Below, piece after piece: positions 1 through 17,760 of a stretch of 64,000 nt of DNA. Below the pieces are notes generated by a model. It was not told where the DNA came from and did not search any database. It saw only the letters and a program-made list of their open reading frames with translations. The DNA is taken from the NCBI RefSeq assembly GCF_024223415.1, contig NZ_CP100500.1; one strand, written 5' to 3'. Source of the stretch: Escherichia coli (GTDB lineage: Bacteria > Pseudomonadota > Gammaproteobacteria > Enterobacterales > Enterobacteriaceae). The stretch's first letter is position 1, and each line of letters begins with the position of its first letter. The translations under genes were made by a program, and so were the position numbers.

Positions 1-232
1 AACTCGCACATCTTTTTCACGTAAGCTATTGTTTATTCCGTTGAACCTCATTTTGAGGTTGATTGACATACCCGGGGTAAACTCATCTGCGTTGCGGTTG
101 TATATCTGGGTGATTTTATCGCCGCGCGAATACCCCAGCGCAGTAGCCAGCGTTGCGGCGGTGAACCACTGCCTGCCGTTGTGTTCGGTAGTTTCGAGAA
201 CGTGAGATTTGAATACGAGTTGGGTACTCATA
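1..232 (-). CDS. Bro-N / antirepressor-like protein, N-terminal part only (gene runs off the window start)
   Basis: Own translation of the reverse strand from the ATG at 230-232: MSTQLVFKSHVLETTEHNGRQWFTAATLATALGYSRGDKITQIYNRNADEF..., which resembles phage Bro-N domain proteins. Not in the ORF track because it is open-ended. Confidence 0.45.
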
Positions 233-613
233 GTTTTATGTCCTTTGCAATATTTTGAATTCACCCCTTTTGAGAGGGCGGTCAGGCGCTCAAAACCGTG
301 CAAAGTCGGCGGGCGTATTTCCCTTACGGGTATTGTATTAGCCTCACGCCCGACCATTGAATTCTCAATATCGTGGACATAAAAAATCCGCATGTCTGTC
401 GGGTGCGGTTTCCGCTTTGCAAGGTGTTTTGAGCACCATGACGCGGAATATAGCCCCGTTAACGCGACATTGTCAAACTGAAGAATTTTACGGATAGCAA
501 AAACCCCCGAACTGGTGAGGAACAGGGGTTTTTACTTTACTACTGATTTCGCGGTACGCTGATCTCAAACAGACGAGATTATCACCAGACTTGTAAAGTA
601 AGCAATGGGCGGA

Positions 614-1357
614 TTAAGATGAAGCGTTCGCTATCTGAGCGTCGCTGAATGTGAAACCCGCCTGTTTAAGACGCTGGATTAAGCGGGGTACTGTCTCCCG
701 AACATGGTCATTAAAGTTGAGATAAAGAATACCGGCGGCATCAGAAGGCTGCTCAAGGTGTTGTTTCTGCAGGATGACCACGTTACTGCGACCGAGTGAA
801 GATAACAGCATCCCCATTTCTAAAACTACGTTTTGGCGTGCCCTGGGCTGGGCTGCTTCCTGGCCGTCTCTTTTGGCGTATCCCACATCATCGGGAGTGA
901 GGAGAACAATGCCGAAACGCGTCGCTGTCCGTCCCTGACCAATTTCACGTTCAAGCTCTTCAATTATCGTAAGCCCGGTCCCACCGGTATTCTGCAAAAT
1001 AAAATGGTCAGGTAATCCAAGCTTATGAAGAATAAGTTCAAGCTGCTCTTTTGCTACATGATCGTGACCGTGAACGATGAAAATCTTTTTTGCTGGTTCT
1101 TGCATCATGACTGGAGCGTTACCCAGGTGTTCATTAATAATGGCTTCAACCTCAGGTTTTGCCGCTTGTGAACCCTGAATCAAAATCGTTCCGGTGTGGT
1201 AAAGCGTTATGATGGCACCATTACTTAAACGATAACAATCATGACCGGTTTTGTTTTCTTCTCCGGTAACATCAAATCCGGATTCGACTAAAAATTGACG
1301 AAAAGTATCGACAGCGTATGGGTATTTGAGTGCCATTTCATTGAGTTCCTGCATCAT
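614..1357 (-). CDS. Two-domain protein: unknown ~85-aa N-terminal domain plus C-terminal TIR-like domain (FIVHGHD ... LLTPDDVG ... RARQNVVLEMG ... LGR motifs, as in the CAP12/PycTIR-type TIR-like family). Candidate defence/abortive-infection effector
   Basis: 247-aa ORF; motif pattern recalled from the predicted nucleotide-binding TIR-like family; gene is bracketed by an exact 15-bp direct repeat and followed by a hairpin with T-tract. Confidence 0.5.
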   Translation of the reverse strand: MMQELNEMALKYPYAVDTFRQFLVESGFDVTGEENKTGHDCYRLSNGAIITLYHTGTILIQGSQAAKPEVEAIINEHLGNAPVMMQEPAKKIFIVHGHDHVAKEQLELILHKLGLPDHFILQNTGGTGLTIIEELEREIGQGRTATRFGIVLLTPDDVGYAKRDGQEAAQPRARQNVVLEMGMLLSSLGRSNVVILQKQHLEQPSDAAGILYLNFNDHVRETVPRLIQRLKQAGFTFSDAQIANASS

Positions 1358-1410
1358 TGTGTTCCTGTAAAGTAAGCAATAGTTAACAAAGTTGCAACGA
1401 CAACGATCAC

Positions 1411-3477
1411 CTAATCTTTTCTGTAACGGTACGCCTCGAATCCTCCGGCGTTTAGTGGAATGCTCGTGGCCCAGTCAGGAACGGTTGCCAGTAACTGGCT
1501 GAGATGTTCTGCTGAGTAATCGGGTGAGTCAGGGGCCTCACTTATAATTTCATCGTGTACCGTCAGCACAATGCTGTAACCGGCATCTTCGATAAGCGGC
1601 ATGTTTCCGGCCAGAACGTCGCGGGCGGCCGCCTGGGTGACGTTCTCCACCAGCTTTCCGCCGTAGGTTTTGAGTCGTTGCCATTTACGCGAATAAGAGT
1701 TAACACCCATATAGGTGATATCCCCTTTTTCGATAACCGGAGACGGGTAGCATACAGCGCGTCCGGATGGTAGCTGTATGCGCAGCCACGCGCCATCGCG
1801 GCGGATTTTAAGATAACCGCAATACAATGTTTTTTGCGGTGTGGCGATTGCAGTGCGGACGGTGCGCTCCAGTTCGTACCAGAAATCGCAGGTCGCCGGG
1901 TGCGCCCTGCGCCACAGGCGCTTGAGCGAGTCACATGCGATGAATACACGCTCGGACAGGCCAAAGGTCGACTTACGTTTAACCGATTCGTCGTACCAGC
2001 TTTTCGCCTCGCGGATAACATCGCGGGGAATGTTTGGCAGTGCGGCGTTCGCCAGCTCGTCGAGATCGAGACCGTAAACCAGAGCAAAAGTGATGAAAGC
2101 CGATACACCACCTCCATAACCCAGACCGAGTTCCATGACTTTACCGATCTGACGCATGTGTTTATCAACATCATCTGGTGCAATATCGAAAGCTTTTGCA
2201 TACGCCAGTTTATATAAGTCCGGACCCGTTCCGGCGTCGTACTCTCTGAATGCATTCAGTTTCCATTCTTCTCCCGCCAGCCATGCCAGCATACGGCCTT
2301 CAATGTTCGACAAGTCACTTACCACCAGTTTTTTGCCTGTTGGCGCGATAATGCAGCCACGTAACGCTGAACTGGTTAGTTCCATGATATTGTCAAACAG
2401 CAGGTCTGCACATCCGGCTTTCAGTGCTTCGATGCCTTCGTCTATTTGTTCCTGTTTTAGTGAAGGGCGGGGAAGGTTCTGGGGCTGGAATAGCCGTCCG
2501 GCCCAACGACCGGTACGTGACGCCCCGCAGAACTGTAGCGTACCGCGTAAGCGCCCGTCGTGGCTTACGCCTTTCATCAGTGCCTTGTATTTACTGGTGC
2601 TGGTAGTACTGGCCTGCAGGCGGATAGCCAGCAGTTCTTTCACGGCAGATGGTAAATTGGGGTCGGCAATACGACGTTCCAGAGTACTGCGTTGCATGTC
2701 TGGTAGCTCCACACCGTAGGATTCAACAATGTGCTTAATCAACGCGTCCCGTTGTGTGGCTGCCTGCACTTCGCCATCAGTCATTTCCTGTGTACGCTTT
2801 GCCAGGCGCTTTTGCTCCTGGTCTACCGCTTCGATCGCAGCGCGCGCGAGTTGAATGTCCATGCAGACGCCCCGGTCGTTGATCTGCTGATCACGATGCC
2901 AGAGTGCCAGTTCTGTCCCCTGATAATTCCACTTCGGCAGACGTTTATAGACTTCGCGCATTGCCTCGATATCCAGTCCGGCGTAAGCAACAAAGCGCCG
3001 CCATTCTTCCGGGTGGGTTTTGCTGGTGGCCCGGCGCAGTTTGCTGTTTTTCGGGCGTGGTTTGCACAGTAGCTGAATTAGTGACTTGCCTTCTTTATCC
3101 TTCGCTTTGTCCTGCGGGACGCCCAGCACTTCGCAAAGAGCGCCCAGCGCCCCCGGAAGACCATGCGCCAGCGCCTGCACCATTGTGTCGCGCCAGCGTT
3201 CAGTAGCTGGTGACATGTCTGGCATACAATGACGAAGTATCGTGCGGTCAAAGTGCGAATTGTGCGCCCAAACCTCCACATCCGGGTTTTTGAGTGCGAG
3301 ACGTAATTCCGGGGGGATTTTTTCGCCTGCGGTCAGGTCCCACACCTGCACGGGATCGTTATTGATGGCCCAGGCAAAAAGCATAATTTCAGCGCCTTCT
3401 GCATATGCGTGGGTACCGTTTTTTATCGGTATTTCAGAGAAGGTTTCAAGATCGAGCCAGAGAATGTTTGCAGGCAA
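1411..3477 (-). CDS. Phage family-A DNA polymerase with N-terminal DnaQ-like 3'-5' exonuclease
   Basis: 688-aa ORF; exonuclease motif LDLETFS near the N-terminus; polymerase motifs [16 protein letters not shown] (motif B-like K...YG) and VHDEI (motif C-like). Confidence 0.85.
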
Positions 3478-3546
3478 AACAGGACCCTCCGTAAATTAAA
3501 CGGCTACAAAAAGCCCCTGACAGTGCAGGGGCGGGATTGATTTGAA

Positions 3547-4311
3547 TTAACGAGGTAAGGCTGGTGGAATGTATCTGCCGATGCGGTCTTCTATGGTCGG
3601 CAGAATGCACATGCTGTCGCTGAAGCGGTCATGCAACTGGTAAACCAGTTTAGAATCCATTTTTTCGAGAGCAGGCATTAACTGCGCCCGCCAGATTTCG
3701 TTGATGCGCCGGAAGTTATGACAGACGGCGCGGAGATTGTTGATGAACATTTCCTTCTCTGCGTCAGTGACTTCTGTCTGTGTTTTCTGAATACGCTTTG
3801 TGCTGCCATTCCGATAGAAGCGTTCCTGAGCAGCAACAGCCTCATCCACGGTTGGATAGCACCCTACGTAAACGCTCTTCTCTCCGTTCCATGCGTAGGC
3901 TCTGTACGGGTTGTATTTGCTCCGGTGATGGTAAACCATCTTCGGCAGACACTCCCTGTGTGGCGCCAGTATCGTGGAGGATTGCTGGTGCAGTTTGCGT
4001 TCGCACTCGATGAAGTATCGGCGGATCTGGCGGCCTTTTTCGTTGCGCTCCACCATCGCCAGTTCTTTGGCCGTGTCGAGGGTGAGGTGGTAGTCCTTAC
4101 AAAGAACATTTTTACGCTTTCCAGTTTTGGAAAACGTTACGATATAATCCTGATTTTCAACGAATTCATAGTCTGCAATTCGTGATGTAATCCACGCTGC
4201 AAACACTTTCCCTACCCCAAGGAATGCGTGCAGATCGCGAGCATTGCAGAGCAGGGTGGTTTCGTTGGCGATAGCGCCGTTGAAAACGGGGATGAGTTGA
4301 GTTGCCATCAC
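3547..4311 (-). CDS. Protein with AntA/AntB-type antirepressor N-terminal domain
   Basis: 254-aa ORF; N-terminal LIPVFNG ... LHAFLGVGKVFAAWITSRIADYEFVENQDY ... YHLTLDTAKELAMVERNEKGRQIRRYF resembles the AntA/AntB antirepressor domain. Confidence 0.55.
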   Translation of the reverse strand: MMATQLIPVFNGAIANETTLLCNARDLHAFLGVGKVFAAWITSRIADYEFVENQDYIVTFSKTGKRKNVLCKDYHLTLDTAKELAMVERNEKGRQIRRYFIECERKLHQQSSTILAPHRECLPKMVYHHRSKYNPYRAYAWNGEKSVYVGCYPTVDEAVAAQERFYRNGSTKRIQKTQTEVTDAEKEMFINNLRAVCHNFRRINEIWRAQLMPALEKMDSKLVYQLHDRFSDSMCILPTIEDRIGRYIPPALPR

Positions 4312-4469
4312 AGTTACCTCTAACGGTGAAATTCACCGCCACCACTGAGTTGCAAATCTCATATGGGTGGCGAACTGACGAGGTTTGCAATACCGGCGTT
4401 AGAGGAAACCGGCGCGCCGAAGCGCCCCCGCCAGCCCGCCATAATGCGAACGTGGCAAAGCTTGCGACA

Positions 4470-4500
4470 ATAAAAAAGACGCTGGCGCGTCTGGTGTCGC
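4470..4500 (-). terminator. Rho-independent terminator-like hairpin downstream of the DUF2815 gene
   Basis: On the minus strand, AGACGCGCCAGCGTCT hairpin followed by TTTTTTATT (plus-strand aataaaaaagacgctggcgcgtct). Confidence 0.5.
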
Positions 4501-4691
4501 CCCTAACAATTCCGGGTTGCAAATCCCGATCTCCATTTGGGAGATTCGGTGAGCATAAACCGGAAGGGGGCGATGAGTCAATATCGGGGTAGCAGGGCGA
4601 CTGGGTGCTAACCAGAACAATACAGGTAGCTCCGGGCATATTCCCCTTTGCAAAAACACCCGGCGTTTAACCGGGCGTCTGTGAAGCAGGA

Positions 4692-5240
4692 TTAAATCAG
4701 TGCTTCAGCATCAGCACCTTCGCTGATATCGTCGAAATCGTCAGCGCTTGCCACTCCGCCGCCAGCGAATGCATCGCCGTCTCGCAGGAACTGGACTCCG
4801 CCGAGTGAGGCATTAATGCGTTTACCGAAATTATTGTCCTGTGCCCAGATATCGATAACGGCGTTTACATAGCACCCTGCATAGGGACGTCCATCAGCCT
4901 GAGTAAGTGGCGAACGATCGCGATCAAGAACAGCCGGGCGCGCTTTGTTAGCAGCATTCAGGAAGAAATTACCGGGGAAACCTTCATACTCTGCTTTTTC
5001 ATCGCCGTCATGCAGGCACAGATTGAGTTTCTTCTCCAGTTGGTTATAAACAGCCTCCCACTTCTCTCCCCATTTTTCCTTTGCGACCTGCTTCATTGCT
5101 TTACGGATTTCTTCCAGTTGTGGGTGTTCGGGAGACATTAAAAATACAGCGGAGAAACGCGGATCGCCTTCGCCGTTTACAGTTTTAGCTTCAAACAGCG
5201 CAGGAAAAGCCAGACGAACATTGTTCAGCTTCAGTTTCAT
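4692..5240 (-). CDS. DUF2815-type phage protein (putative ssDNA-binding protein of the PolA/DUF2800 replication module)
   Basis: 182-aa ORF starting MKLKLNNVRLAFPALFEAK, acidic C-terminal tail; adjacent to DUF2800-like gene as commonly seen in phages. Confidence 0.55.
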   Translation of the reverse strand: MKLKLNNVRLAFPALFEAKTVNGEGDPRFSAVFLMSPEHPQLEEIRKAMKQVAKEKWGEKWEAVYNQLEKKLNLCLHDGDEKAEYEGFPGNFFLNAANKARPAVLDRDRSPLTQADGRPYAGCYVNAVIDIWAQDNNFGKRINASLGGVQFLRDGDAFAGGGVASADDFDDISEGADAEALI

Positions 5241-5255
5241 TATATGTCTCCTTAA

Positions 5256-6560
5256 TCAGATGAGGTCAGCGGCGAGCGCGTCGTCGGACACGTCATCGAA
5301 ATCATTTACAGGGTTAATATTGAGTGCGGGGCGCGGATCTGAATCAGGAACGACGGTGGGTTTACCGTCCGCTCGTGTTATCAGGGCCTCGACTTTTGGC
5401 CAGCGGCGCGGACTGGCTTTTTTGATGAGTTTTTCTGCTTTGGCAGGGCTAATCAGTTTAAAGTCGAAAACTTCTTCAGTTTTATACCTGAACTGATCCT
5501 TCAGAAGAGCTCGAGCTGCTTCCTCATCACTCCAGGTCCGGTTACCTTGTTTTCCTGTTACCAGTTTAAACCCCGGTACCGTATGCCCGGCATGGAGTTC
5601 ATTGTGAACCCGGTCACGTAGCGCTTTGCAAAAAGACTCAATCAGGTCAACATGGCTGTAAATGTCTGCCAGTTGTTCAGCGGTCAGTAGTGGTACACGC
5701 TTAACGGCATCTGCGAGTTGCTCGCCAACGGGTCTGCTCAGGTCAACGAAGTCGTCCGCAACGGCGTTAAGTCTGGCCTGTGCTTCTGCTGAACACAGCC
5801 CACCTTTTGCTTTACAGAAGAGGCACTGTTTCTCGCCTGGTGTGAAGTTTTCAGGTGGCAGGGTTTCGACGCCTTCGCAATCGGCGATGTTGAACATCAC
5901 GATCACACTGGCGGCAGCTTCCTGCGCCCGTTTGCCGAATGCCTGCAGTTCCTCCACCGTCAGGGACCACTCTGAAACGTGGTTAATCCGCGGCTGGTGG
6001 ATGAACAGGCGCACCGTCTCGAAGTCGTACAGAAGGCTGAACTGCTCGAGCACGCCCAGGGCATACAGCTGCAACTGCTCGTTCTGCTCAGCGTCGACAC
6101 GCACTCCCTTACCGTATTTCAGGTCGTGGATCTGCAGTTCGTTACCCGCGATGATTATGCAGTCGGCAGTTCCGAAAGAGTCTTCCACACCGACGATGTG
6201 GGAGAAGTCTACGCGTTGCTCAACCAGCAGCGTGTTGCCCTGTGCCAGTGACCAGACTGTATCAACATACCGGCCAACGGCTTCGACCATTTCCTCATCC
6301 ACCTGTGGGCCAGATGTATCATCAGGATTTGCGCGAAGGGGGTATGAGCCGAGAAACATAGAAACATTGCATCCGGCGTAGTGTTCCGGGTGACTTTGCC
6401 TGTTTCGCAGGACTTTTTCTGCAAGCGCGTGCGCCGCAGTACCTTCAACAGCAAAGGATGTTTCTTTGTCAGGCTGAGTGGACTCCAGCGCCAGACTGCC
6501 GCTACAACGCATCCATCTGTGGGCGGCTGATGGAGATAATTTTGCATGAACCTCGGGCAT
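5256..6560 (-). CDS. DUF2800-type PD-(D/E)XK nuclease-like phage protein
   Basis: 434-aa ORF; N-terminal [15 protein letters not shown] motif typical of DUF2800; C-terminal cysteines ([11 protein letters not shown]). Confidence 0.6.
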
Positions 6561-6562
6561 AA

Positions 6563-7486
6563 TTAACCCTCCAGCGCTTTTTCAGCAAGGGCTATCACGT
6601 CTGCGAGTTTATCGTCAGCGACTTCACCGAGTTTTCTGGCTCCCTGTTTTTCCAGAATGGCAATAGCTTCTGCCCGGTAACCGCCTTTTGCAAGCTGGAG
6701 GATCAACCCTTCGGCCTGTTTACGCAGTGCAGCAAAATCGGTCTGTTCGCCAGTATCTTCCACGGCATCACCACCAGTTTCGGTACCGCTTTTTGCTGCG
6801 TCTCTGCGTGCAAATTCTTCCTGCAGCTGAAGGTACTCAACACGGTTGATCTCGATATGGCCTTTTTTCAGCATCTCGTTCAACTTGCGTAAGGTGTGGA
6901 GTTCACTGGCTGCTGTGCCGGATACATTTTTGACGTAAAACGGCCCCGTGCGTTCTCCATCTTTGTTACTGGCCTTTTTCGGCTTAACTTCATCACGCCC
7001 ATCTGCAGGTGCATCAAGTAGCTGCTCGGCAAAAGCACGTCGCTCGCCGATAGTTGGCAGGTCGTCCCAGAACTTAAGAATGTTGCGGGACAGGTCCAGA
7101 AGAGCGGGTTTATGCAGTGCCCTGGCTCGTTTGACGCACTGCAATGTGCTGTCGAGAGCATCAATCTGAACTACTCGTTTATCACCTTCAGCATCACGGT
7201 AAGCAACAGCTCGTTGCAGCATGTCTTCAGTAACAGGGGTAGCTGACGGGTAGAAACCAGCCAGTGCGATAACGTCGCTGAACTCCAGATCATCCAGTGT
7301 CATTACCGCTTTATTTTCAGTTTCATCTGCTGTTTCGGTTGCTGTATCCCGACATTCCTGTACTTGTGAAATGGCGTCAGGATGCATAACAATACCTGAT
7401 GCCATTGTGCGGATAAGACGTTCAAGCAGCACATTATGTTGCGCCAGAAGTTGGTTATTAAGTTCGAGACTGGTTTCTAAGCTCAT
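6563..7486 (-). CDS. Hypothetical phage protein
   Basis: 307-aa ORF, tightly packed in the leftward operon (ends 1 bp before the next gene); no motif recognised. Confidence 0.5.
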
Positions 7487-7665
7487 ACTGTGGTCCTCGC
7501 TACAAGGAGAATGAAAGTGATGATCAGGCCAAGTGCAGTGGCAACGACCAGACCTGTCATCAAATCGAAGTGTTTACGGCGATAACGGAGAACATCGCGC
7601 CCCGTCAGTCGATGGATGTGTTCAGGTTTCATCGGTTGTATTCCTTTTTTCATATCGGGGAGCAC
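7483..7665 (-). CDS. Small hypothetical protein with C-terminal hydrophobic helix
   Basis: 60-aa ORF overlapping the start of the downstream gene by 4 bp; C-terminus LVVATALGLIITFILLVA. Confidence 0.35.
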   Translation of the reverse strand: MLPDMKKGIQPMKPEHIHRLTGRDVLRYRRKHFDLMTGLVVATALGLIITFILLVARTTV

Positions 7666-11687: not shown

Positions 11688-12386
11688 ATGCTGACAGCAA
11701 TCAACAACGAAAAAATTGTCATCGCAAGGGACGCGCAGAAACCGGGAATTTTCGCCTGCCCGGAATGTGGTGAAGTTGTCACCCTGCGGAAAGGTTCGGT
11801 GAAAGTTCACCATTTCGCCCATCGCAGCACCACATCCTGCGGTTACGGGAAAGGCGAATCTGAGTTGCACATGGATTTGAAAATGCAGGTCTATGACGCG
11901 TTGAACGCGCATCGTGAGGTGGAATATGTTGCGATGGAGGTCGCAGTCGGTGATGTTCGTCCCGATGTGCTGGCGATTATTCGGGGTCAGAAGGTTGCTT
12001 TTGAGATTCAGGTTAGTTCGCTGAGTATTGAAGACCTCTATCGCCGCACGGTTGCGTACGCAGCTCAGGACATTGCGATGATCTGGATCCTGCACTGGCC
12101 TGAAGGTACTGCACTGGACCGGCTTTATCACCCTGCATCATGGGAGCGATGGTTACATACTTGCGGAATGGCAACTCTGTACTTCTGGGCGGGCGATGGC
12201 TGGGTCAGGCCAGTGCGTCTGGGAAACCGACAACATGGATTACAAAGAGCACCTCGTGCCCATCTGGTTGATGATTTCGAACCAAAGCGAACAGGCGGGT
12301 GGATTAAAGGTGATTTTCTGATACCTGCTCGCTTTATCTGGAATCGTGTGCGACGGCAAAAACGTAGAGGTCAGAGCTATGCGTAA
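11688..12386 (+). CDS. CoiA-like protein (competence protein CoiA-like family, predicted nuclease)
   Basis: Start at ATG 11688 (AAGGGGG RBS); N-terminal CPECGEVVTLRKGSVKVHHFAH zinc-finger-like segment typical of the CoiA-like family. Confidence 0.5.
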   Translation: MLTAINNEKIVIARDAQKPGIFACPECGEVVTLRKGSVKVHHFAHRSTTSCGYGKGESELHMDLKMQVYDALNAHREVEYVAMEVAVGDVRPDVLAIIRGQKVAFEIQVSSLSIEDLYRRTVAYAAQDIAMIWILHWPEGTALDRLYHPASWERWLHTCGMATLYFWAGDGWVRPVRLGNRQHGLQRAPRAHLVDDFEPKRTGGWIKGDFLIPARFIWNRVRRQKRRGQSYA

Positions 12387-12813
12387 TATTCAACAGGTTT
12401 TAGAGCGCTGGGGTGGCTGGGCTGCCAATAGCAACACCACAGTGAGCTGGGCTCCAATAGCGGCGGGATTTAAAGGGCTGGTAGTCAGCAGCCTGCCTGG
12501 CAGGCTGAGTTGCTGCGACGACGATGGCCTGATTATCGATGCTTGCGTCTGTCGGCTGCAGCAGGTCCGTAAGCCTGAGGAACTGGACGTCATTATGCTG
12601 TACTACGTCTACGGGTTAAGCAAACGTGAGATAGGACGGCGGCGTCGATGTTCTGAAGGATTTATCCGCCAGCAGTTGCAGGTAGCTGAGGGATTCATTG
12701 AGGGGTGTCTCTGCATGCTGGGTGTGAGCCTTCAGATGGATCCTGAGGTCGAAATTCAAAGGGATGAAAAAAGTATTAGTGCGCTACGCAAAAACTGCGC
12801 TACGCTGGTATGA
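12379..12813 (+). CDS. Q: Late-gene antiterminator Q (phage 21/82-type Q family)
   Basis: Sequence MRNIQQVLERWGGWAA ... resembles lambdoid Q antiterminators; position immediately upstream of the lysis cassette. Confidence 0.7.
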   Translation: MRNIQQVLERWGGWAANSNTTVSWAPIAAGFKGLVVSSLPGRLSCCDDDGLIIDACVCRLQQVRKPEELDVIMLYYVYGLSKREIGRRRRCSEGFIRQQLQVAEGFIEGCLCMLGVSLQMDPEVEIQRDEKSISALRKNCATLV

Positions 12814-13187: not shown

Positions 13188-13403
13188 ATGAAATCAATGG
13201 ACAAAATCTCAACTGGCATTGCCTACGGAACATCCGCTGGTAGTGCGGGATACTGGTTTTTACAGTGGTTGGATCAGGTCAGTCCGTCACAGTGGGCTGC
13301 TATTGGTGTGCTGGGGAGTCTGGCACTGGGCTTTCTGACTTATCTGACGAATCTGTACTTCAAGATAAAAGAGGACCGTCGCAAGGCGGCGCGGGGAGAG
13401 TAA
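13188..13403 (+). CDS. S: Class II holin, phage 21 S-type (pinholin) with dual starts MKSMDK
   Basis: 71-aa [74 protein letters not shown], closely resembling the phage 21 S holin as recalled; GGAGG RBS. Confidence 0.85.
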
Positions 13404-13536
13404 TTCAATGGAACATAATAATGAAAAATCCAGAGAGCACTCTGGAAACAGCAAACATTATTCCATTGCTCATTCATTCGGCGGCTTTCGTGATGTAGTC
13501 GGACAGGGTGCTGAGAGAGAACAGGAGAGTAATACA

Positions 13537-14343
13537 ATGACTCAAAACCATGAACTGGTTGTTAAAGGAACCCGAAATTTTGAGAATAAAATTGCGGTGA
13601 TTTTAACCCTGCGTGACAAAAAGCGTTTTGCCTGTGAGATATTTGACTTACACATCAACCTTGAACGACAGGAAGGCGCCACTCTGGAGTTTTATGAGTC
13701 AGAGGCAATAAAACGGGCAAAGACATTGTTCCGGGATGTTGCTGCAGGGTTATGTGAAGGGGACGAGCTGTCGCCGGAAAAGCGCCCCATAATTTTACAG
13801 GCGCACAATGTGTGGATAACCTACAAAGGAAAGCTACCGGGAAGAATTACTGGTTCTCTGAAGATGCCGCCGTCAACACTGCGGTCAGAAAAAGAGGCGT
13901 CTTGTCTGCAGTCTGAGTACTCCATTACGGTTAAAAGTGCCGGAGAGGAAGGAAATAAACGTTATTTTATTGCGTCTGCACCTGATAAAGATCAGGAATG
14001 GGAGTGTAACCGGCCATCCTTTGTTGTATACGGAGATGGCGGGAAAATAACCATCTCAGAAAATGGGAAATTAACACCGCCATCGCACCAGCATAGTGAG
14101 GCGCTCATTGAATTTGCCATTGATTACCTGAAGAACAATAAAAAGCAGGGGCTGATGAAGCGCATTGGTCGTTGCATGGGATATCTGCAGGTAGCAGCTG
14201 AGATTGAAATGATGGCCAGTGGTGCTGACAATGATGCAGTTGTGCTGGAGGCTCTTCTGCGTGATTTTGATAATACGCCCTTTAAGAAAGCACCTGTTGA
14301 CTGGATGCAGCCGGGGATGACTTATCTGAAAGGGCGTATATAA
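13537..14343 (+). CDS. Hypothetical protein (moron inserted between holin and endolysin)
   Basis: ORF track frame 13408..14343; preferred start ATG 13537 preceded by AGGAG; no recognised domain. Confidence 0.45.
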   Translation: MTQNHELVVKGTRNFENKIAVILTLRDKKRFACEIFDLHINLERQEGATLEFYESEAIKRAKTLFRDVAAGLCEGDELSPEKRPIILQAHNVWITYKGKLPGRITGSLKMPPSTLRSEKEASCLQSEYSITVKSAGEEGNKRYFIASAPDKDQEWECNRPSFVVYGDGGKITISENGKLTPPSHQHSEALIEFAIDYLKNNKKQGLMKRIGRCMGYLQVAAEIEMMASGADNDAVVLEALLRDFDNTPFKKAPVDWMQPGMTYLKGRI

Positions 14344-14352
14344 GGTGGCTCG

Positions 14353-14667
14353 TTATCTGTTGCTGGATAATCGACTGAAGATGCGTTCTTTTTGTGTTTT
14401 TGCGTAATGATTGTCCCACTCACAATCAAGGTAGCTTAATTCTTCATTCAACCAGTTATTTATATTGGTCTTAATACGCATAAGCATGGGCTGTGTTAAT
14501 GCTCTGGCGATAATGCCGAGAGTCACAGGTGTGAGATGTCCATACGGCTCAGCCTGAATGGATTTTACTGCATCGTGTTCTTGTGGGAGGAGTAAGAGGC
14601 ACTCTGATTTTACCCGCTCATTTATGGCTTGCAGGCATAAATCATAATTATGTTGATCGTTATGCAT
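14353..14667 (-). CDS. Hypothetical protein, convergent partner of the 13537..14343 moron gene
   Basis: 104-aa ORF on the opposite strand to the late operon; no recognised domain. Confidence 0.4.
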   Translation of the reverse strand: MHNDQHNYDLCLQAINERVKSECLLLLPQEHDAVKSIQAEPYGHLTPVTLGIIARALTQPMLMRIKTNINNWLNEELSYLDCEWDNHYAKTQKERIFSRLSSNR

Positions 14668-14795
14668 GGTTAATCCTCTACTGAAATTGTCAGATATATT
14701 TCAGCCATCAGGAAAAACGCCAGTGTCCTACCGCTGGCGGGCTGAAGATTTAACATATCCAGGGATTCGGAACCGATAAATCCTGATAAATATCC

Positions 14796-15329
14796 ATGAA
14801 CACCAAAATCAAATATGGCCTGTCGGCTGCCGTTCTGGCACTGATTGCCGTCGGTGCGCCTGCGCCTGATATTCTCGACCAGTTTCTGGATGAAAAAGAA
14901 GGTAACCACACAACGGCATACCGCGATGGTTCCGGTATATGGACCATCTGTCGTGGTGCCACAATGGTGGATGGTAAGCCCGTCATACCGGGAATGAAGC
15001 TGTCGAAGGAAAAATGCGTTCAGGTTAATGCCATTGAGCGTGATAGGGCGCTGGCATGGGTGGAGCGCAATATTAAAGTACCTCTGACCGAAGCACAGAA
15101 AGCGGGTATTGCGTCATTCTGTCCCTATAACATTGGCCCCGGTAAGTGTTTCCCGTCGACGTTTTATAAGCGGCTTAATGCCGGTGATCGTAAAGGTGCC
15201 TGTGAGTCGATTCGCTGGTGGATTAAGGACGGTGGGCGTGATTGCCGCACACGTTCAAATAACTGCTACGGACAGGTTATTCGTCGTGACCAGGAAGCAG
15301 CACTTGTGTGCTGGGATATCGACAGATGA
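14796..15329 (+). CDS. R: SAR-endolysin (T4-lysozyme-like muramidase with N-terminal signal-anchor-release domain)
   Basis: N-terminal GLSAAVLALIAVGAPAP SAR-like segment; E...D...T catalytic spacing (DEKEGN, YRDGSG, WTICRG). Confidence 0.8.
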   Translation: MNTKIKYGLSAAVLALIAVGAPAPDILDQFLDEKEGNHTTAYRDGSGIWTICRGATMVDGKPVIPGMKLSKEKCVQVNAIERDRALAWVERNIKVPLTEAQKAGIASFCPYNIGPGKCFPSTFYKRLNAGDRKGACESIRWWIKDGGRDCRTRSNNCYGQVIRRDQEAALVCWDIDR

Positions 15330-15419
15330 GCAGAATATTTTGCTGAAAAATGACGTTGGCCAACGCGGACGGATAACACGATATTCGACATAAATGAATT
15401 TAAATAGTGAATAAAAGCA

Positions 15420-15460
15420 GAAACCCCGATTGTTGGTCGCAATCGGGGTTTTGTGTTTCT
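15420..15460 (+). terminator. Strong hairpin (12-bp stem AAACCCCGATTG / CAATCGGGGTTT) followed by T-rich tract, downstream of the endolysin gene
   Basis: aaaccccgattgttggtcgcaatcggggttttgtgtttc read directly. Confidence 0.55.
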
Positions 15461-15644
15461 GGCAGTAAGTTATGGGAGGCTGCCTTGATTAATTTTAGCG
15501 GAGGAGACTGGATTGTGGAAGCTCTGAAATTGCTCGAAAGAAGTCCGGTTCTGAGAAGAATGTTTTATATAGCTCTTATAGTTATCGGAGCATTCGCCGT
15601 TGCGAAATCACTTCCGGGAATAGCTGAAATCATAAAGGCGCTGA

Positions 15645-15818
15645 ATGCATAAAGAATACCTGGCTGAGGCTGACAAACAGGTCTCTGAATTGAAAGCTCC
15701 GGTAACCGATGACATCAGCGGAGCGGTGGCTTTTGCCATTAAGTGGGTGGCAGTCGGCGTTGCTATATCACCGGTACTGTATGGGCTGGCAAAGCTGGTT
15801 ATTGCGTTGAAATCATAA
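15645..15818 (+). CDS. Small hydrophobic protein (57 aa, one predicted TM helix) within the endolysin-Rz insertion
   Basis: Own translation MHKEYLAEADKQVSELKAPVTDDISGAVAFAIKWVAVGVAISPVLYGLAKLVIALKS; below the ORF-track size cutoff. Confidence 0.3.
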   Translation: MHKEYLAEADKQVSELKAPVTDDISGAVAFAIKWVAVGVAISPVLYGLAKLVIALKS

Positions 15819-15819
15819 C

Positions 15820-15884
15820 TGTTACGGCCAGGTTATTCGTCGTGACCAGGAAAGTGCATTAGCCTGTTGGGGGATAGATCAGTG
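15820..15884 (+). pseudogene. Duplicated 3' end of an endolysin gene (remnant coding ...[20 protein letters not shown]), marking an insertion boundary
   Basis: ctgttacggccaggttattcgtcgtgaccaggaa at 15820 nearly repeats ctgctacggacaggttattcgtcgtgaccaggaa at the 3' end of R (about 15268..15301). Confidence 0.6.
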
Positions 15885-16349
15885 AGCAGAGTCGCCGCGA
15901 TTATTTATGCTCTGGTTATCTGCATCATCGTCTGCCTGTCGTGGGCGGTCAATCATTACCGTGATAACGCCATCGCCTACAAAGAACAGCGTGATAAAAA
16001 AGTCAGTGAGCTGAAGCAGGCGACCGCCACCATTACTGACATGCAGCAACGCCAGCGTGCTGCTGATGTACTCGATGCTAAATACACGAAGGAGTTGGCT
16101 GATGCGAAAGCTGAAAATGATGCTCTTCGGCGCAAGCTTGATAATGGTGGTCGGGTGCTCGTCAAAGGAAAATGCTCTGTGCCATCCTCAGCCGAAACCT
16201 CCAGCGCCTCCGGCATGGGCAATGATGCCACCGTCGAACTCTCTCCAGTTGCTGGACGAAACGTTCTCGGTATCCGGGACGGAATCATCAGAGACCAGAC
16301 AGCACTGAGAACGCTTCAGGAATATATCAGGACGCAATGCCTTCGATGA
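15867..16349 (+). CDS. Rz: Rz i-spanin (inner-membrane spanin subunit); true start probably GTG at 15882
   Basis: [33 protein letters not shown] ... closely resembles lambda Rz as recalled. Confidence 0.8.
16102..16308 (+). CDS. Rz1: Rz1 o-spanin lipoprotein embedded in the +1 frame of Rz
   Basis: [21 protein letters not shown] lipobox and proline-rich [11 protein letters not shown] segment inside the Rz gene. Confidence 0.7.
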
Positions 16350-16550
16350 TAGCGATAATTTTACTGATCATCCTTCACATCTGGCTCTGTAGACAGGGTG
16401 GTGATCACTTCTGGAGTGAATCCAGATTAAACATCTCATTGCTGATGCTTGAAGTTGAGCATCTGGCGCGCGGTAAGGGGCTGCGTTGAAATAAGAGCCA
16501 GTCATTAAAAATACCTGGATTTAGCCTCGCATTCGCGGGGCTTTTTATTG

Positions 16551-16774
16551 CCATTACAAAAGCCACTCCCTACAGAGTGGCTTTGATAATGGCTTATACC
16601 CTACACGGGATAACTTAACTGATATCCCTTTTAACGGATAAAGGTATTCAAGCCTGACACATCATGCGCTGTATCGTCGCCGTATTCCCGTATTAACAGA
16701 GACCGTAGCCCGACGGGGAACTCCTTCTGCGAGAGTGTGCGGGAATAATCAAAAACGATGCACACCGGGTTTTT
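16551..16774. repeat. Direct repeat copy 1 (~224 bp) upstream of the two-gene cassette
   Basis: Near-identical to 18338..18560, with only a few mismatches by eye. Confidence 0.8.
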
Positions 16775-16899
16775 ACCGCGCTAATGATTCGCGGGTTTGT
16801 CCCTCATGCTCGCCAGTCCTGTGCGAGGGTGGAAGAAACAGGGCATGTATTCAGGAGCGTGCGACCGTGGTCGCACGGTATCTTTGTCAGGAGGTTTTG

Positions 16900-17760
16900 A
16901 TGAAAGAGTTGCAAAAAATTAATTCAATAATGGAAAGGTTAAGTGCTCTTGAGCGTAAGCTGGACGATTGTGGAAAGCTGTGTGTTGAAAAGCAAAATGA
17001 GCTTTACCGGGAATTTTTTACAATCGTAAGTGAGCTGATGCCAATTGTTAATAACTGCCTGATGACATCCAGATTTTTTAATGTCGATGCTACTACATCC
17101 AGAAAATTTTCTGTGAAAATTCAAGAAAGAGTTTCTGGTAGTGTGACAAGAGAGATGGCTGAACAGTTGGTGGCAATGAGCAATAAAACAAAAAGAAAAA
17201 AGGCATTGCTTGTAACAGCAAATCAGCTTTCAGGGCGCGTTGACTTTCAGGTCAGACAGGGTGGGCGTGTACTGGTAAATGATGCGTTCGTTGGACGTAG
17301 CTTTAGTCCTTACTCGATAAAATATGATGTTGATGCAGATGATCAGGATATCAGCATTTCCTGGAAATCTGAGACAGCAGGGATTGTATTAACAGCAGAG
17401 TTGTTGAGTGATGATAAAAATGATGTCCAGCATCATTTGGACGAAAAGAATCATATTTCTGAAATTTGTATGAAGCCACGCAGCGGAATGACTTTATTGT
17501 CACGCACTCTTGCTGCTGGCTTTTCTGCACCGGAAAAACGTGTGCTTCTGGTAGTGCCTGAAGATGCAGATATTCGACCACTGAATGGCTGTGATGTTAT
17601 TAGTGCAAAAACATTGCATACCCGCGTCATTCCTGTACCGGATGTGGTCATTATTGATGATGTTGAGAAATGCAAGTCTGTTTCCTCAACTGCCACAATC
17701 AAGCGAATTTTACGTTGTAGCACGTCGGCTGTTGTATTCCGGAAGCAGTTACATAACTAA
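16900..17760 (+). CDS. Hypothetical soluble protein (~286 aa), first gene of the repeat-flanked cassette
   Basis: ORF-track frame 16735..17760; preferred start ATG 16900 with AGGAGG RBS; N-terminal coiled-coil-like segment. Confidence 0.5.
   Translation: MKELQKINSIMERLSALERKLDDCGKLCVEKQNELYREFFTIVSELMPIVNNCLMTSRFFNVDATTSRKFSVKIQERVSGSVTREMAEQLVAMSNKTKRKKALLVTANQLSGRVDFQVRQGGRVLVNDAFVGRSFSPYSIKYDVDADDQDISISWKSETAGIVLTAELLSDDKNDVQHHLDEKNHISEICMKPRSGMTLLSRTLAAGFSAPEKRVLLVVPEDADIRPLNGCDVISAKTLHTRVIPVPDVVIIDDVEKCKSVSSTATIKRILRCSTSAVVFRKQLHN

Follow-up and report, generated by a model that had tools for sequence, protein, structure and literature searches.

A probable horizontally exchanged cassette with two small genes at the R-Rz junction of a lambdoid lysis region in Escherichia coli

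The genes bor and lom of phage lambda and gp15 of phage HK97 are examples of morons, and in phage P2 the gene of an accessory membrane protein, LysA, is located between those of the endolysin K and the spanins LysB and LysC. The releasin gp25 of phage Mu is also an accessory membrane protein of a lysis cassette (PMC9239132). Morons have been defined as additional genes found at a fixed position in some relatives only, with a promoter of their own and a downstream factor-independent terminator (PMC2629481, PMC8065619). In the late operons of lambdoid phages, the passage of Q-modified RNA polymerase through terminators and the presence of terminator-bounded morons are textbook knowledge (PMC8065619, PMC2629481, PMC4104026). 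Here we describe a segment of ~480 bp between the endolysin gene R and the spanin gene Rz in a stretch of 64 000 nucleotides (nt) of E. coli DNA (contig NZ_CP100500.1 of assembly GCF_024223415.1; hereafter the window), which contains a lambdoid prophage or phage with lambda/21-like head and tail genes downstream of the lysis genes. We consider it likely that positions 15335-15814 are a horizontally exchanged accessory cassette at the R-Rz junction, a known insertion hot spot of lambdoid and Shiga toxin (Stx)-type prophages, a judgement that jointly covers the proposal that its two open reading frames (ORFs) may be expressed late and could tune lysis. The cassette and its immediate surroundings are composed as follows.

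14796..15329, plus strand: endolysin gene R, 177 amino acids (aa), T4-lysozyme-type with a hydrophobic N-terminus (PHROG 7 'endolysin', E value 4e-60)
15259..15334, plus strand: repeat copy A, consisting of the true R 3' end and a 9-nt remnant of an Rz start, ATGAGCAGA, at 15326-15334 (repeat search and alignments)
15335..15419, plus strand: post-R leader, conserved at 80-84% identity behind R in those Stx-type prophages that have an R-Rz insert of any kind (317 records; eight-way alignment)
15420..15462, plus strand: predicted intrinsic terminator with a 14-bp stem, a 5-nt loop and a T-run (hairpin 15420-15452; scan and folding), the apparent left edge of a portable small-ORF module
15485..15652, plus strand: ORF A, 55 aa, TTG start, with the Shine-Dalgarno sequence GGGAGG at 15474-15479, 5 nt upstream (protein family, substitution rates and structure model)
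15645..15818, plus strand: ORF B, 57 aa (PHROG 1115, E value 1e-26), its start overlapping the ORF A stop (ATGCATAA)
15815..15890, plus strand: repeat copy B, left over from the final ~23 codons of an R allele of the type found in phage Perceval and not translated
15882..16349, plus strand: Rz, i-spanin gene with a GTG start (PHROG 13 'Rz-like spanin', E value 3e-72)

An earlier note on this DNA, made from the letters alone, had taken the segment between R and Rz for an insertion acquired by recombination within the endolysin gene, and both claims were borne out by alignment. The R/Rz junction of phage Perceval is overlapping and uninterrupted; the phage is identical to the window over 15123-15296 and from there on follows copy B and Rz, not copy A. 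These alignments show an overlapping, Perceval-like junction to be the apparent ancestral state. The whole insert with both repeat copies was found at 99% identity in two E. coli draft genomes, and the same insert occurred almost base for base in at least 15 contigs of independent origin, from E. coli and from metagenomes, behind differing R alleles. Three loci allowed the breakpoints to be mapped (L014, L015 and L016): the insert had zero or one mismatch to the window over ~550 nt while the upstream R was a different allele, with sharp breakpoints within R at ~15111-15122 (L014) or at 15273 (L015 and L016). The R of the window is itself a mosaic allele, its final ~30 nt being of the insert-bearing type, as seen in mismatch maps against Perceval and the same three loci. 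The near-identity of the insert behind different R alleles indicates that it has spread by homologous recombination within R and Rz. On the basis of these comparisons, we conclude that the insert is a young, horizontally spreading module, apparently carried into different phages via homologous crossovers in the two genes. Its G+C content shows a modest dip (0.42-0.44 across 15300-15700 versus 0.50-0.53 in the flanking R and Rz).

On its left side the cassette carries its own copy of an R 3' end, and on its right side a remnant of one. A repeat search returned one outstanding direct repeat, 15259-15334 versus 15815-15890, with 78% identity over 76 nt; the two copies are identical at 38 of the first 40 nt, and the remainder is diverged yet colinear. 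The near-exact recurrence of endolysin sequence at 15820..15853 described earlier is thus real (two mismatches in 34 positions against 15264-15297), although the note had taken this core for the last ~34 bp of R: the repeat is longer, and the core stops 32 nt before the R stop codon, with lower similarity continuing through the stop/start junction. In copy A, ATGAGCAGA corresponds to the first three codons of an Rz gene. Read in the R frame, copy B gives 22 residues that form a bona fide endolysin C-terminus of another allele. This frame has no start codon and is shut upstream by a TGA at 15808-15810, as read from the sequence, and nothing upstream is translated in it. As also noted earlier, copy B ends in a stop/GTG junction that leads into Rz: its TGA overlaps the Rz GTG at 15882, and both this stop/start overlap and the native Shine-Dalgarno sequence of Rz (GGGGGA), 7 nt before the GTG, are retained in copy B. 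Copy B would thereby keep Rz translatable though Rz is uncoupled from R. The locus may serve as a worked example of a neighbour-gene remnant that could act both as a recombination handle and as keeper of a downstream translation start. In a related cassette of E. coli E7-1N7, the ORF B homologue precedes, in this order, a decayed R 3' remnant, another small ORF and Rz, which indicates that the remnant is older than the arrangement seen in the window. The latter looks like the product of a crossover between an E7-1N7-like remnant and an intact Perceval-type R end.

The hydrophobic 57-aa ORF that had been reported at 15645..15818 is present and corresponds to ORF B. A second ORF, tentatively given as 30 aa at 15560-15652, had been placed wrongly; it is the 3' part of the 55-aa ORF A, which begins at TTG 15485 behind GGGAGG. 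Relatives of ORF A have GTG at the position of this TTG. Its family comprises 14 close clusters and 16 representatives at 50% identity, with the signature MNFxxGxWIVEALxLxE...LRRMxY followed by a hydrophobic stretch. When ORF A was compared with its copy in E. coli STEC711, the ratio of non-synonymous to synonymous substitution rates (dN/dS) was 0.17 and 12 of the 19 differences were at third codon positions. ORF B belongs to a family of ~90 clusters that come almost exclusively from Escherichia or Salmonella; every one is annotated as 'hypothetical' and lacks a Pfam domain. The usual form of ORF B has 48 aa (MKNGLELKAPVTDDISRAVAFAIKWVAVGIAVSPMLYGLAKLIIALKS). Across the 40 conserved codons of ORF B, dN/dS was 0.05-0.25, with dS values up to ~2. 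These substitution patterns indicate that ORF A and ORF B are genuine genes under purifying selection. The overlap of the ORF A stop with the ORF B start suggests translational coupling, and in every ORF A context examined an overlapping second small hydrophobic ORF followed downstream, its type varying.

Hydropathy analysis located a hydrophobic segment toward the C-terminal end of both proteins. In the AlphaFold (AF2) models, ORF A forms helices at residues 8-19 and 21-54 (predicted local distance difference test score, pLDDT, 84.6) and ORF B at residues 2-17 and 20-56 (pLDDT 83.2). One long hydrophobic helix is thus predicted for each; in ORF A it follows a conserved amphipathic helix at the N-terminus, in ORF B an acidic N-terminus. 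Both are predicted membrane proteins that consist of a short helix and a single long hydrophobic helix. N-terminal heads and C-terminal tails ('ALKS', 'IRWW') were found shuffled among peptides of the ORF A and ORF B families. Searches of both proteins against NCBIfam, PADLOC, Pfam and PDB sequences were negative; ORF A matched no PHROG, Pfam or NCBIfam family, and the PHROG matches obtained were confined to the 'unknown function' families 1115, 4493 and 3246. Homology between ORF A and ORF B was considered, and we make no claim to it, as profile-profile comparison gave a probability of only 23% over the C-terminal 23 residues. A full-text literature search for the peptide sequences gave no match, and one for 'between R and Rz' returned nothing useful. 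Elsewhere, positions 2400-3220 of the STEC711 locus (L005) contain an unannotated array of four small hydrophobic ORFs after a baseplate gene, namely an ORF A homologue, a 54-aa partner and two tandem '..NWKFLLIW..IRWW' paralogues, with the same terminator as in the window upstream.

The earlier observation of a strong terminator-like hairpin in the insert was confirmed by folding. The hairpin at 15420-15452, followed by GTGTTTCTGG, has a free energy of -24.1 kcal/mol (z = -5.4), and none of 200 shuffled sequences folded as well. An A-run upstream gives it a bidirectional look. Eight relatives keep all pairs of the hairpin, of which one has changed in a compensatory manner (U-G to A-U) and several others through G-U; the STEC711 hairpin has an additional T-A to C-G change. 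We conclude that 15420-15462 is, by prediction, a strong intrinsic terminator. The note had called a terminator inside the late operon unusual, which did not hold: a Q-type antiterminator is encoded in the operon (12379-12813), the same terminator is located 3' of R in several hundred Stx-phage records, and such arrangements are textbook (PMC8065619, PMC2629481, PMC4104026). When the window was aligned with the STEC711 module, which follows a baseplate gene of another prophage, homology began exactly at the hairpin, marking the terminator as the left edge of a portable unit. Moreover, a strong intrinsic terminator was present 25-55 nt upstream of the start in all eight ORF A homologue contexts (window 15420-15485, L005, L019, L022, L023, L025, L026 and L027), even in remote homologues, whose hairpins are unrelated in sequence. 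Such an arrangement is suggestive of a functional link of the terminator with the ORF A that follows it, rather than of hitch-hiking.

A crude consensus scan detected no plus-strand sigma-70-like promoter in 14600-16800 or in the homologous modules of L005 and L010, which is a weak negative, and no terminator was found by scanning between ORF B and Rz. Since no promoter was found and a terminator precedes every ORF A relative examined, production of ORF A and ORF B is probably confined to lytic growth, when Q-modified RNA polymerase can pass the terminator. In a lysogen, the terminator would keep ORF A, ORF B, Rz and the structural genes silent. Rfam searches over 14600-16800, and permissive ones over 15320-15560, gave sub-threshold terminator-like matches only; the small RNAs (sRNAs) AgvB, AsxR, STnc100 and Esr41 had no Rfam match even at E values up to 10. 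The post-R leader was also considered as a Pas sRNA and rejected, as Pas sRNAs are located between esterase and holin genes, upstream of the holin, and not after R.

The R-Rz junction is occupied in other phages as well. In 933W, ant is located between R and Rz behind the same post-R leader, and one to three small ORFs are present between R and Rz in E7-1N7, 2012C-4221, the Stx2 prophage of O104:H4, vB_EcoS-569R3 and PhiR12_1. Relatives of the small ORFs occur between R and Rz in many Stx phages, including that of O104:H4. The insert was matched by 317 phage records, mostly in its first 130 nt (leader and terminator), and the ORF region by 1703 of 5426 complete E. coli genomes. Plaque-forming isolated phages such as PhiR12_1 carry R-Rz inserts; as these phages are propagated, the inserts are compatible with lysis. 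Taken together, conserved membrane micro-proteins, most of them unannotated, appear to be encoded in mosaic sets at the R-Rz junction of Stx-type prophages, and the phages concerned include the medically important ones of the O104:H4 outbreak strain and 933W. In addition, an unannotated transmembrane ORF of 44 aa was observed between ant and Rz of 933W (AF125520, 5436-5570); it is 65% identical to a 43-aa pre-Rz peptide of O104:H4 (PHROG 4906). In the Qin prophage of K-12, the rrrQ-rzpQ junction was found to be uninterrupted, and YnfT, YnfQ and YnfR are unrelated to the ORF A and ORF B peptides.

We propose that, late in infection, ORF A and ORF B may act at the inner membrane, for instance by tuning the step between holin and signal-anchored endolysin and hence the timing of lysis. 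Their assignment as late-expressed inner-membrane lysis modulators is our leading guess, for which their position in the cassette, their predicted membrane location and the precedents of accessory membrane proteins in lysis cassettes can be named. Several points weigh against the cassette and lysis-tuning proposal. Homologues of both ORFs are also found at prophage ends, behind baseplate, tail-fibre or J genes, which argues against a strictly R/Rz- or lysis-specific role. Neither ORF showed similarity to any holin, antiholin, releasin, toxin or defence family in PHROG, Pfam, NCBIfam, PDB or PADLOC. The consensus scan could miss a weak or non-sigma-70 promoter, which would permit expression in the lysogen, and the order of events at the R 3' end (ancestral copy, first duplication) was reconstructed from a handful of relatives only. 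The proposal can be extended to an unrecognised class of 'terminator-gated' late micro-proteins, which would be formed by ORF A-type proteins and their translationally coupled partners, ORF B among them, that vary in type. Such proteins would depend entirely on Q antitermination for their expression and, through an action on the inner membrane, would determine when the pinholin and signal-anchored endolysin bring about lysis. We regard this extended form as distinctly improbable; if it were true, the timing of toxin release in Stx phages would be set by such proteins, too. More generally, any influence of ORF A and ORF B on lysis timing would also affect burst size and the moment at which Shiga toxin is released; if they have no such influence, they are one more late-operon cargo.

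The main rival explanation holds that ORF A and ORF B are cargo for superinfection exclusion or for blocking receptors or injection, in the manner of HK97 gp15, Cor and Sie-type morons, and that their place beside the lysis genes is incidental. Members of the same ORF families do occur at the classical moron site at the prophage end, after tail-fibre, J or baseplate genes; the shuffling of heads and tails among family members would be expected of arms-race genes, and both proteins are predicted to be single-pass inner-membrane proteins. Exclusion pays off in the lysogen, however, where expression looks unlikely given that no promoter was detected and a terminator is located directly upstream in all contexts; nor was there a PADLOC match. 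We consider exclusion an unlikely, if serious, explanation.

Another explanation would be a unit similar to type I toxin-antitoxin systems, in which ORF A and/or ORF B are membrane toxins checked by a short antisense RNA that starts from a minus-strand site at 15519..15492, ends at the bidirectional terminator and covers the ribosome-binding site of ORF A. The ORFs are indeed small, hydrophobic and coupled, the hairpin has terminator features on both strands, and short, terminator-ended antisense sRNAs are known from moron sites of Stx prophages (PMC4104026). The window and STEC711 share the minus-strand site (TCCACA-16-TAAAAT), but it is part of a conserved coding sequence, so that its conservation is uninformative, and its -10 element is lost in the Salmonella-type homologue. 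Promoter-like sites were no commoner than in shuffled sequences (two found versus 3.0 expected), no promoter for a toxin mRNA was found, and the Rfam models of AgvB and AsxR stayed below threshold, those of antitoxins far below it. This explanation seems very improbable to us. As an observation in its own right, transcription from the minus-strand site would yield an antisense RNA of 65-75 nt over the ribosome-binding site of ORF A (region 15412-15519).

An insert flanked by a direct repeat might suggest an error of sequencing or assembly, or else the target-site duplication of a transposable element. These readings deserve practically no credence, since the same structure with both copies recurs in at least 15 contigs of independent samples from NCBI, ENA and Logan, which rules out the artefact, and since the repeat is long and diverged (76 nt at 78% identity) with copies from two R alleles, and neither terminal inverted repeats nor a transposase ORF were found.

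The remaining genes of the late region provide the setting of the cassette. Those assigned to antitermination and lysis are the following.

12379..12813, plus strand: Q-like late antiterminator (PHROG 79 'anti-termination protein Q-like', E value 6.9e-45), the context for read-through of the terminator
13188..13403, plus strand: class II (S21-type) holin, the first gene of the lysis cassette (PHROG 9876 and PHROG 20, both 'holin', E values 6e-35 and 1e-32)
16102-16308, plus strand: Rz1 lipoprotein gene, embedded in Rz in the +1 frame (lipobox)

All modules of the window have close relatives in Escherichia, and no complete E. coli genome of the collection was identical to it. A second insert is located within the lysis cassette, in the interval between holin and endolysin (13408-14667). 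It contains a plus-strand ORF of 311 aa (PHROG 1085) and a convergent minus-strand ORF of 104 aa (PHROG 1853), both from families with no assigned function and both with no match in PADLOC or NCBIfam. Overlapping the Rz stop codon is a hydrophobic ORF of 50 aa (16337-16489; PHROG 11822, E value 9e-38), with a terminator downstream of it at 16523-16542; this ORF was also called in L008 and L016 and is annotated in O104:H4. Between the lysis cassette and the terminase genes is an ORF of 341 aa (16735-17760; PHROG 2571, a family with no assigned function), located in a stretch of low G+C content (0.36-0.45). The early region (1-7500) encodes a family A DNA polymerase together with DUF2800 and DUF2815 genes and is ~89% identical to prophages of Shiga toxin-producing E. 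coli O121 and related strains; its replication module is unlike the classical lambda O/P type.

Compared with the systems described at the outset, the cassette resembles the morons of lambdoid phages in being extra DNA at a fixed place of the late operon in some phages only (Perceval lacks it, the window and at least 15 contigs have it), in the flanking intrinsic terminator and in having homologues at the tail-end moron site; its modestly lower G+C content may be a further parallel. Classical morons differ in having their own promoter and a downstream factor-independent terminator and in being expressed in the lysogen, whereas here no promoter was detectable in the consensus scan, a weak negative, and the terminator at 15420-15462 is located upstream of the ORFs. 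With the AsxR and AgvB sRNAs at moron sites of Stx prophages (PMC4104026), the locus shares terminator features on two strands at a moron boundary downstream of PR'; unlike these sites, the window was matched by neither RF02702 nor RF02703, whichever strand was searched. P2 LysA and the Mu releasin are similar in that a small membrane protein gene is located between or beside endolysin and spanin genes in a phage with a membrane-tethered endolysin. They are dissimilar in sequence and profile (Pfam, PHROG and NCBIfam), and ORF A and ORF B are much smaller and are also found away from lysis genes. LysA and the releasin would be functional analogues if ORF A and ORF B tune lysis. In phage 933W (AF125520) the site is the same, the same leader (AAGAAGAATATTTTGCTGAAAAATGA...) directly adjoins the R stop, and foreign DNA separates the leader from Rz. 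The phage differs in that it carries an antirepressor-like gene of 189 aa and has none of the terminator hairpin, ORF A, ORF B and R 3' remnant of the window. We conclude that the R-Rz element of the window is a further case of the accessory cargo known from the R-Rz hot spot, genuine and fairly ordinary.

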